DNA of 64,000 nucleotides, taken from positions 68,134 to 132,133 of the forward strand of contig CALVOP010000002.1 of the NCBI GenBank assembly GCA_944350345.1, in the 5' to 3' direction. The first letter of the stretch is position 1, and the number at the start of each line of letters is the position of its first letter. The translations under genes and the position numbers were made by a program. Below, one piece after another: positions 57,334 to 58,112 of the stretch. The stretch is from an uncultured Bacilli bacterium. Its GTDB lineage: Bacteria > Bacillota_I > Bacilli_A > RF39 > UBA660. The notes beneath the pieces are model-generated. The model was not told where the DNA came from. It worked only from the letters and a program-made list of their open reading frames with translations, and did not search any database.

Positions 57334-58112
57334 TATATAAAGAAGATTTAAACAATGGAGCAACTGGACCTATAGGCCCAACAGGAGCAACAGGACCAAC
57401 CGGAAGTGTTGGACCAAATCCATACAATTTATATGTGCAATCAAGTGCATTACCTAATGGTGATGGGAGTGAAGAAAAGCCATTTCAAACTATAGAAGAA
57501 GCGTTAAACGTAGTTGAACCAAATGGAGTGATAAATGTTTTAAGTGGAACATATCCAGTTACTAGTCAGTATGTTTTAAGTAATAATGTTACAATAAAAG
57601 GAAGAGCAGGGTCGATTATTGAACTTGAAGCACCAACAATTCCATTTTTACTAACTGGAAATAACACACTTGACGGACTTACTATAACCAGTAACGTGGC
57701 ATATCCAGTAGAATTTATACAAGTATCCGGGGCGAACAACCAAATAATAAATTGTCAAATTTATGGACCTAATCAACCAGGAGATTCGTCAACTTGGGTA
57801 GTAAATCGCGGCTTTGTAACGCAAAGTAATGCTACAAATTTGTTAGTTAGAGACAACGTTTTCTACTCATTAAGGCATTCCGGTTATTTAAATCCTGGAT
57901 CAACCGAAATTATAATGAACAACGTAACTTTTTATACACGAGGCTACGTAGTAGATCAGGCAATCTTTGAATTTTCTGGTAATTCTTGGGGAATACCTGA
58001 AAATGCGGTAGATATAGCACTACTAGCAGGAACAACTACAGGAGTTCCATATGACCCAATTTCAGAATTAGAAGCAAATAACAGTAATGCAACTATAAGT
58101 GACCAGCGATAA
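57315..58112 (+). CDS. collagen-like repeat protein with C-terminal right-handed beta-helix domain (3' segment of the split gene; locally an ORF from ATG 57315)
   Basis: GATGPIGPTGATGPTGSVGPN GXY triplets, then a GSEEKPFQTIEEA...SGTYPV pectin-lyase-fold-like region. The first 19 nt overlap the recombinase gene. Confidence 0.65.
   Translation: MELSNLIYKEDLNNGATGPIGPTGATGPTGSVGPNPYNLYVQSSALPNGDGSEEKPFQTIEEALNVVEPNGVINVLSGTYPVTSQYVLSNNVTIKGRAGSIIELEAPTIPFLLTGNNTLDGLTITSNVAYPVEFIQVSGANNQIINCQIYGPNQPGDSSTWVVNRGFVTQSNATNLLVRDNVFYSLRHSGYLNPGSTEIIMNNVTFYTRGYVVDQAIFEFSGNSWGIPENAVDIALLAGTTTGVPYDPISELEANNSNATISDQR

Follow-up and report, generated by a model that had tools for sequence, protein, structure and literature searches.

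The window analysed here, a 64,000-nucleotide stretch of contig CALVOP010000002.1 from an uncultured gut Bacilli bacterium, very probably carries an integrated element of a TnpX/TndX-like large serine recombinase (LSR) with a DUF4368 domain, inserted at the codons of a collagen-like gene. The element spans positions 52039-57364 (5,326 bp) and is bounded by two attachment (att) sites. By sequence comparison the att pair is genuine and its mechanism is the ordinary one for a large serine recombinase. The family-wide choice of collagen-repeat codons as target, in probable spore-surface genes, is not described in the literature searched; among open-access papers we found none on serine-recombinase elements targeting collagen-like genes.

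The insertion splits the collagen-like gene after codon 26. The 5' fragment (51959-52038, plus strand) encodes MNCNKNKINAYTQNIPICLVPGPTGA together with the first two bases of a Thr codon, and matches the N-termini of two uninterrupted full-length proteins, P0001 and P0002. The 3' part (57363-58112, plus strand) consists of Gly-X-Y repeats and, behind them, a Pel9A-like beta-helix domain, and the frame to the right of 57363 continues as TGPIGPTGATGPTG. At the insertion, AC begins the Thr codon within a Gly-Ala/Pro-Thr triplet. When the element is deleted in silico, the Gly-X-Y run is continuous and in frame again, and the rejoined protein has 779 relatives, among which empty alleles are common. 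P0001 is 90% identical to the rejoined protein with 100% coverage and P0002 is 86% identical.

Closely related metagenome contigs show the same neighbourhood with the gene uninterrupted. In the contig L001 the P0001 gene follows the same Lon, LysM-protein and 283-aa genes, while L002 and L003 carry the P0002 gene with the same empty site, followed by pheS. A BLAST comparison aligned L001 1-3085 with window 48959-52043 at 97.2% identity, and L001 3126-4105 with window 57356-58326. The flanks of the empty sites are 94-97% identical to the window, with Lon, the LysM protein and a YsxE-like protein upstream and pheS downstream, and the empty site of L001 reads cctactggagcaactggacctataggccc. Since L001 is collinear with the window and has an empty site, we consider the insertion to be real and polymorphic. 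In an independent second sample (L129, 99.5% identity) the arrangement of the window and the junction are unchanged. ERR14036139 is one of the samples with this strain, while the empty-allele contig derives from ERR14045439.

Attachment sites and the crossover dinucleotide

The earlier note on this sequence had proposed a shared core, gcaactg, and perfect 7-bp inverted arms in a reconstituted attP. All four of its coordinates are exact: gcaactg is read at 52034-52040 and 57360-57366, aaacaat at 57350-57356 and attgttt at 52045-52051, within the junction sequences ccgggaccaactggtGCAACTGaacgATTGTTTatatcttc (52020-52059) and gaagatttAAACAATggaGCAACTGgacctataggccc (57342-57379). The chimeric attP, aaacaat-ggagcaactgaacg-attgttt, is also as predicted, although its perfect arms are nested in longer ones, gaagatNtaaacaat (14/15), with an arm length of about 15-18 bp. 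Centred on the AC at 52037-38 and 57363-64, the attP dyad has 17 of 26 complementary arm positions, compared to a window background mean of 7.5 (sd 2.4), and a score of 17 is reached by 2.4e-4 of random chimeras. An independent repeat search of the window returned the junctions as a 38-nt inverted pair (52022-52059 and 57342-57379).

The identity of attL and attR is not limited to 7 bp but runs tgg-N-gcaactg-N-ac, so that tgg (52030-32 and 57356-58) forms a second short block common to both; in random pairs of 25-nt windows from this DNA, 7 nt or more in a row match in register at a frequency of 3.7e-3. The symmetry of attB is more than the weak one that had been claimed: overall 11 of 26 positions are complementary, but in the inner 12 bp it is 8 of 12, against a background of 3.5 (sd 1.6). 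A strong attP dyad next to a weakly symmetric attB, which had been called the usual pattern, is for LSR att sites a loose rationale and not a rule, and the family consensus attB described below is itself a good inverted repeat.

The two sites can be delimited as attL at 52012-52063, combining the left half of attB with the right half of attP around the AC at 52037-52038, and attR at 57338-57389, combining the left half of attP with the right half of attB around the AC at 57363-57364. The left terminal arm CGATTGTTTATATCTTCA (52043-52060, plus strand) contains attgttt and is kept as CGATTGnATAAATCTTCT in relatives, and the right terminal arm AGAAGATTTAAACAATGG (57341-57358, plus strand) contains aaacaat. 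The predicted circular attP is agaagatttaaacaatggagca-AC-tgaacgattgtttatatcttca, with the 44-nt joint GAAGATTTAAACAATGGAGCAACTGAACGATTGTTTATATCTTC, and the predicted attB is ccaactggtgca-AC-tggacctatagg, giving the restored site CCAACTGGTGCAACTGGACCTATAGG. As judged from these predicted sites, inverted half-sites surround a non-palindromic 2-bp crossover, as in other LSR systems.

Short repeats are common in AT-rich DNA, and our promoter and repeat scans gave counts close to background, so one may ask whether the junctions are chance repeats or the product of a chimeric assembly. This is hardly credible and is effectively refuted already by the dyad (p about 2e-4), by the recurrence of the same junction in the independent sample, by the existence of empty sites and by the same architecture in 11 relatives.

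These relatives also bear on the crossover, which the earlier note had located within gcaactg. That location is borne out and can be narrowed to the central AC. An alignment of recombinase homologues led to 80 loci from species-representative genomes, including 11 complete elements of 2.9-10 kb that are delimited by inverted ends. All 11 have the architecture arm-CAATSG-N4-(AC or GT)-N4-CGATTG-arm, and with attL and attR aligned in register only positions 0 and +1 (AC or GT) are identical in all of them. A further locus, L130, carries the cargo and left end of the window element (95% nucleotide identity) in a different collagen-like gene; both share ACtgaacgattg, and their divergence starts directly left of the AC. 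At the other end the window, L007, L009 and L034 all have taaacaatggagcaAC, and divergence starts directly right of the AC. We infer that strand exchange takes place at the AC at 52037-52038 (plus strand) in attL and at 57363-57364 in attR.

The tgg block is also common to attL and attR, and homology between the window and the related locus of Clostridium sp. CAG:914 (L005) ends at 57357, within this block. A crossover there, or elsewhere in gcaactg than at the AC, is nevertheless very unlikely given the register of the 11 elements and the divergence on either side of the AC. The tgg block sits 5-7 bp away from the dyad centre, and positions -7 to -5 differ between attL and attR in most relatives. 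Moreover, the cargo-side tgaa is the same in the window and L130, and ggagca is the same in the window, L007, L009 and L034, despite different targets. The exclusion of the tgg block comes from these family data, the window by itself being insufficient. A crossover at the CG/GG beside the arms was considered as well and rejected.

By analogy with characterised LSRs, we propose that a circular form of the element carried attP, and that recombinase dimers would bind attP and a collagen-codon attB. Both sites would be cut at the central AC, the half-complexes would rotate and rejoin, and the products would be attL and attR as found in the window. The orientation of insertion would be set by the element core, AC or GT, and precise excision would restore the collagen-like gene. 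For the intact LSR of the window, the analysis thus defines where the element begins and ends, at which dinucleotide it crosses over and which attP and attB could be put to the test.

Target choice in related elements

Nearly all of the 80 loci come from uncultured gut metagenome-assembled genomes labelled Bacilli, Tenericutes or Mollicutes; Clostridium sp. CAG:914 and Acholeplasmatales-like bins are among the sources. A search of other genomes for attB-like collagen-gene sequences occupied by related elements, which the earlier note had suggested as a check, was strongly positive. At least four Gly-X-Y triplets abut the element in 42 of the 69 loci with enough flanking sequence (36 co-oriented and 6 on the opposite strand), and several further loci have two or three triplets. 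The Gly-X-Y codons begin ~25-30 bp past the recombinase stop codon in the collagen-flanked loci.

Every attB reconstructed from the 11 complete elements reads through as Gly-X-Y without a break, with AC at the beginning of a Thr codon, and where the collagen gene lies on the opposite strand the core is GT. This flip from AC to GT, which accompanies insertion in the opposite orientation, is a natural illustration of core-determined polarity. The coding-strand consensus of attB is GG.CCaACtGGaCCa-AC-tGG.CCtAC.GG, or GGNCCA-AC-TGGNCC in its short form, and the family target site string is GGNCCAACNGGNCC. The inverted repeat of the consensus is due to the Gly-Pro-Thr codons themselves. A repeated coding motif with a built-in dyad (Gly-Pro-Thr-Gly-Pro) can thereby act as a multi-copy landing site, and a defined 20-30-bp target may be of interest to genome engineers who use the multi-targeting clade.

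From these alignments we conclude that the recombinase family targets the Pro-Thr-Gly codon string of collagen-like repeats, which is present many times per genome. The sequences place related recombinases in different collagen-like genes, at different positions and in both orientations, as is expected of multi-targeting enzymes. The DUF4368 domain marks the multi-targeting, TndX-like LSR clade (Durrant et al. 2022, PMC10083194), and its detection in the window's recombinase indicates that this protein belongs to the TnpX/TndX-like clade. For multi-targeting enzymes it was proposed that they either have a relaxed specificity or recognise a target sequence which occurs at several host sites (PMC10083194), and the second option fits the recombinase family of the window.

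One subgroup of recombinases with 53% identity (L052, L056, L057, L058 and L070) lies instead in ABC-transporter ATPase genes, at the motif that codes for EPTGALDS. Its site, gcaccaACcggagctcttga, has the same CCA-AC-NGG core.

Several genomes carry more than one copy of the element, and the cargo is different in every delimited element. Among the cargo genes of L011, L013, L025, L027 and L037 are those for an ABC-F-type ATPase alongside a radical-SAM/SPASM protein, for an ADP-ribosyltransferase exoenzyme-like protein, for a radical-SAM protein with an RlmA-like methyltransferase, for a clostripain-family peptidase with DUF2207, and for an HTH regulator with an ABC/FtsX transporter. These genes could have resistance or toxin functions. 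The family spreads varied cargo (ABC-F ATPase, radical-SAM protein, RlmA-like methyltransferase, ADP-ribosyltransferase, peptidase) in little-known gut Bacilli.

Recombinase, cargo and interrupted host genes

The gene at 55264-57333 (plus strand) encodes a protein of 689 aa with the catalytic motif YLRLSDED...SKSIKNQ, which we annotate as an intact large serine recombinase with predicted recombination activity. It matches the Pfam families Resolvase (PF00239, E 1.8e-21, residues 18-171), Recombinase (PF07508, E 1.8e-20) and DUF4368 (PF14287, E 3e-6, 27.8 bits against a cut-off of 25), whereas Zn_ribbon_recom (PF13408, E 8.7e-5) reaches 23.3 bits and stays slightly below its cut-off of 25.3. 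In an alignment of 21 recombinase sequences the residues Y21, R23 and S25 as well as the cysteines C484, C487, C494, C507 and C517 are invariant. The protein matches a PHROGs integrase family (3.5e-82). Its best match in the PDB is the TnpX catalytic domain (2mhc, E 2.7e-15), followed by a conjugative-transposon recombinase (3g13), and its similarity to integrases in the PDB is distant, with E 1e-6 or weaker. The match to the Pfam Recombinase domain is interrupted around residues ~245-390, where an insert of ~140 aa, conserved family-wide, separates its two stretches.

The recombinase lies in a conserved module (55225-57357, plus strand) with 98.5% nucleotide identity to L005, and this homology begins just 39 nt before the recombinase ATG. 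An open reading frame (ORF) at 57315-58112, publicly called as the 265-aa protein P0003, has its ATG within the 3'-terminal part of the recombinase gene and reads across attR into the collagen-like gene. It is not conserved in relatives and is therefore probably incidental. The idea that it is a designed fusion which supplies a start codon was rejected, as group-B relatives have a stop codon there.

The cargo of the window element consists of two genes on the minus strand. The first (52146-54362, 738 aa) has an internal 306-bp duplication (52299-52510 and 52605-52816), and its AlphaFold model is poor (pLDDT 57.5). The second (54380-54955, 191 aa) always accompanies it. Searches of PADLOC, PHROGs, NCBIfam and PDB sequences returned no match for either gene, the sole match being a weak one of the 738-aa protein to HopA1 in Pfam. 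No relaxase domain was detected in the cargo of the window or in 10 cargo proteins of relatives, and no phage genes were observed in the element. Scanning the element for sigma-70 promoters and terminators was uninformative, with counts equal to the shuffled expectation.

The 738-aa gene and its small partner form a two-gene cassette that is widespread in gut contigs (L122-L128 and L130), where it adjoins other recombinases, KilA-N or LemA/DUF2207 genes. In L126 the cassette again lies beside an element end that abuts collagen codons.

Upstream of the split gene, on the plus strand, a sigma-K-type -10 motif (CATAnnnTA, CATATATTA) is found at 51936-51944, 14 nt before the ATG. CATAnnnTA is the sigma-K -10 consensus of Bacillus and Clostridium promoters. 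It is present 10-40 nt before the start codon in 16 of the 17 readable target genes compared to 3 of 44 window genes, and for the first ten target genes the Fisher p against window genes was 4e-7. The target proteins combine a Cys-rich N-terminal part with Gly-X-Y repeats and C-terminal domains of various kinds. The gene just upstream of the split gene encodes a YsxE-like spore-coat protein (TIGR02904, E 1e-28, below the curated cut-off). This YsxE-like protein comes after a 214-aa protein that ends in a LysM domain (50211-51703 for the pair), directly downstream of Lon, an arrangement that presumably recalls the spoVID-ysxE operon near lonA/lonB in Bacillus subtilis. The uncultured Bacilli orders RF39, RFN20 and ML615J-28 were predicted to include spore formers (PMC10868615). 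The sigma-K-type motif, the LysM/YsxE-like neighbours and the predicted spore formers of related orders make it probable that the target genes encode spore-surface proteins produced late in the mother cell under sigma-K. Their repeated knockout could then affect spore adhesion or transmission.

Elsewhere in the window, ~1.4 kb are duplicated at 91-99% identity (40565-42019 and 62633-64000). The gene in each copy (ORFs 40710-41792 and 62778-63773) encodes a long run of Ser-Gly and, towards the C-terminus, a part that contains Cys. Two large ORFs of 895 and 948 aa (21988-24675 and 44862-47708) have stretches that are 83% identical at the nucleotide level, both mutually and internally, and the 948-aa ORF is rich in repeated Thr/Ser/Asn modules.

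Present mobility and comparison with known systems

Most relatives have an additional small gene next to the recombinase. A conserved ORF of ~56 aa (MKNKKEKKKTNFNYSEEFITSTPNPTEEQLKAIFNKKYFNYIKRIEKRMLGGCNFG) with the motif ..FNYSEEF..ELKxIFNKKYFxYIKRxENR.. lies directly upstream of the recombinase in 43 of the 76 loci scanned (among L004-L039, L048, L050-53, L062, L070 and L084). These are nearly all of the loci whose recombinase is at least about 60% identical to that of the window. The ORF has no Pfam family and could be a candidate directionality factor or accessory protein. A conserved GCGCGTTATAAT (TATAAT) box is also present upstream of the recombinase in relatives.

Several observations weigh against an LSR element that targets collagen codons in the manner proposed here. 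The window copy has neither the 56-aa ORF nor the GCGCGTTATAAT box in the region 54956-55263, while the 98-99% identical L004, L005, L006 and L084 do have the ORF. Two of these, L005 (CAG:914, scaffold FR902162.1) and L084 (pig gut), have the same recombinase module with a non-collagen flank: at L005 10079-10200 and L084 3136-3260 the module adjoins the tail of a non-collagen ORF of 36 codons beside mraY. The sequence there (aaacaatgaaactACttatt) has the AC in register with three changes, compared to the window, in the 6 nt before it, and no left end could be located for the L005 element over a distance of 8 kb. The bases between arm and core vary among close relatives more than a serine-recombinase mechanism predicts. 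Degenerate attP-junction patterns, two of them run against IMG/VR and one against JGI metagenomes, gave 0, 1 and 36 matches, all by chance and with no family-like arms. Finally, host sporulation and sigma-K control are deduced from motifs and one family match below its cut-off.

In our reading the window copy has swapped its cargo and has lost the 56-aa ORF and the TATAAT promoter of the recombinase, which makes its present excision ability uncertain. A doubtful but still sizeable alternative is that the element is by now an immobilised remnant, with a genuine att pair, in which the cargo replacement removed the 56-aa gene and the promoter and left the collagen-like gene permanently knocked out. 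The short homology upstream of the recombinase ATG, the missing ORF and box and the unchanged arrangement in the second sample are consistent with this. The intact recombinase ORF and both intact arms speak against it, as does L130, whose cargo and left end in another collagen-like gene lead us to conclude from the sequences that cargo and left end of the window type have moved recently. In addition, a partner is dispensable for excision by TnpX-type enzymes, as in Tn4451, whose recombination takes place at 2-bp identities and requires no recombination directionality factor (RDF) (PMC5704250).

The elements could also be developmentally regulated intervening sequences, retained in the germ line and excised only in the sporulating mother cell, which rebuilds the gene for sigma-K-dependent expression. 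The skin, SPbeta and gin elements use LSRs and rebuild mother-cell genes in this way (PMC5595907, PMC4191935). The sigma-K-type motif of the targets, the position of the window gene after the LysM/YsxE-like pair, the LSR in the element, the precise in-frame excision in silico, the 56-aa ORF of relatives as a possible RDF and the predicted spore formers in related orders (PMC10868615) would agree with such a role. Still, we consider it improbable. The window copy is without the 56-aa ORF, a sigma-K-type motif was found within 260 nt upstream of only 0-1 of 35 recombinase genes, where relatives have the conserved TATAAT instead, and the targets of one subgroup are ABC ATPase genes and not spore genes. 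The many positions, both orientations, several copies per genome and variable cargo are typical of an active transposon, and the common empty alleles also count against a developmental role.

A broader proposal is that a whole clade of these TnpX-like elements in uncultured gut Bacilli is specialised on the Gly-Pro-Thr string of sigma-K-driven, collagen-like spore-surface genes. Since only the mother cell, which is discarded, would need such genes, the elements may follow the example of skin or SPbeta, staying silent in the germ line and leaving during sporulation with the 56-aa protein as RDF. Or they may be heritable on/off switches by which spore-surface fibres are diversified, and carry resistance- and toxin-like cargo at the same time. 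We put this forward tentatively and regard it as unlikely.

Among known systems, the phage serine integrases Bxb1, phiC31, A118/LI and TP901-1 resemble the window element in domain order, in att sites of about 50 bp with imperfect inverted repeats and in the PHROG integrase match. In phage serine integrases a non-palindromic central dinucleotide sets the polarity. The family described here differs by its lack of phage genes, its distant sequence and its multi-copy, multi-target distribution.

With skin (SpoIVCA), SPbeta (SprA/SprB) and gin (GirC/GirX) the element shares an LSR and an insertion in a probable mother-cell coding sequence whose ORF is rebuilt by precise excision, here in silico, and it resembles gin in being small and not of phage type (PMC5595907, PMC4191935). 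Each of those has a single fixed site in a single gene, whereas here a repeated codon motif is used in many genes and in both orientations, and the scan for the sigma-K-type motif found no sporulation promoter on the recombinase. No collagen-like or exosporium target was found in the searchable text of one SPbeta paper or in literature searches.

The closest likeness is to Tn4451/Tn4453 (TnpX) and Tn5397 (TndX), with which the element shares an LSR with DUF4368 and TnpX as the best PDB match. They also have in common a small size (3-10 kb), a recombinase at one end and variable cargo, and a 2-bp core with many target sites per genome (PMC5704250, PMC10083194). Tn4451 differs in its cargo, since no Mob or relaxase gene was found in the cargo examined here, so that the element does not bring its own relaxase as an integrative mobilizable element (IME) does, and in the 56-aa partner ORF conserved in most relatives here. 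In Tn4451 a promoter is formed by the circle joint, which cannot apply to the window element as its recombinase points outward at the right end. The target here is a long and specific coding sequence (GGNCCA-AC-TGGNCC, Gly-Pro-Thr) and not a loose site, and the core is AC or GT where theirs is GA. Given this core, the element works like a member of the TnpX/TndX clade but is not a relative of Tn4451 or Tn5397 at the level of the att sites.

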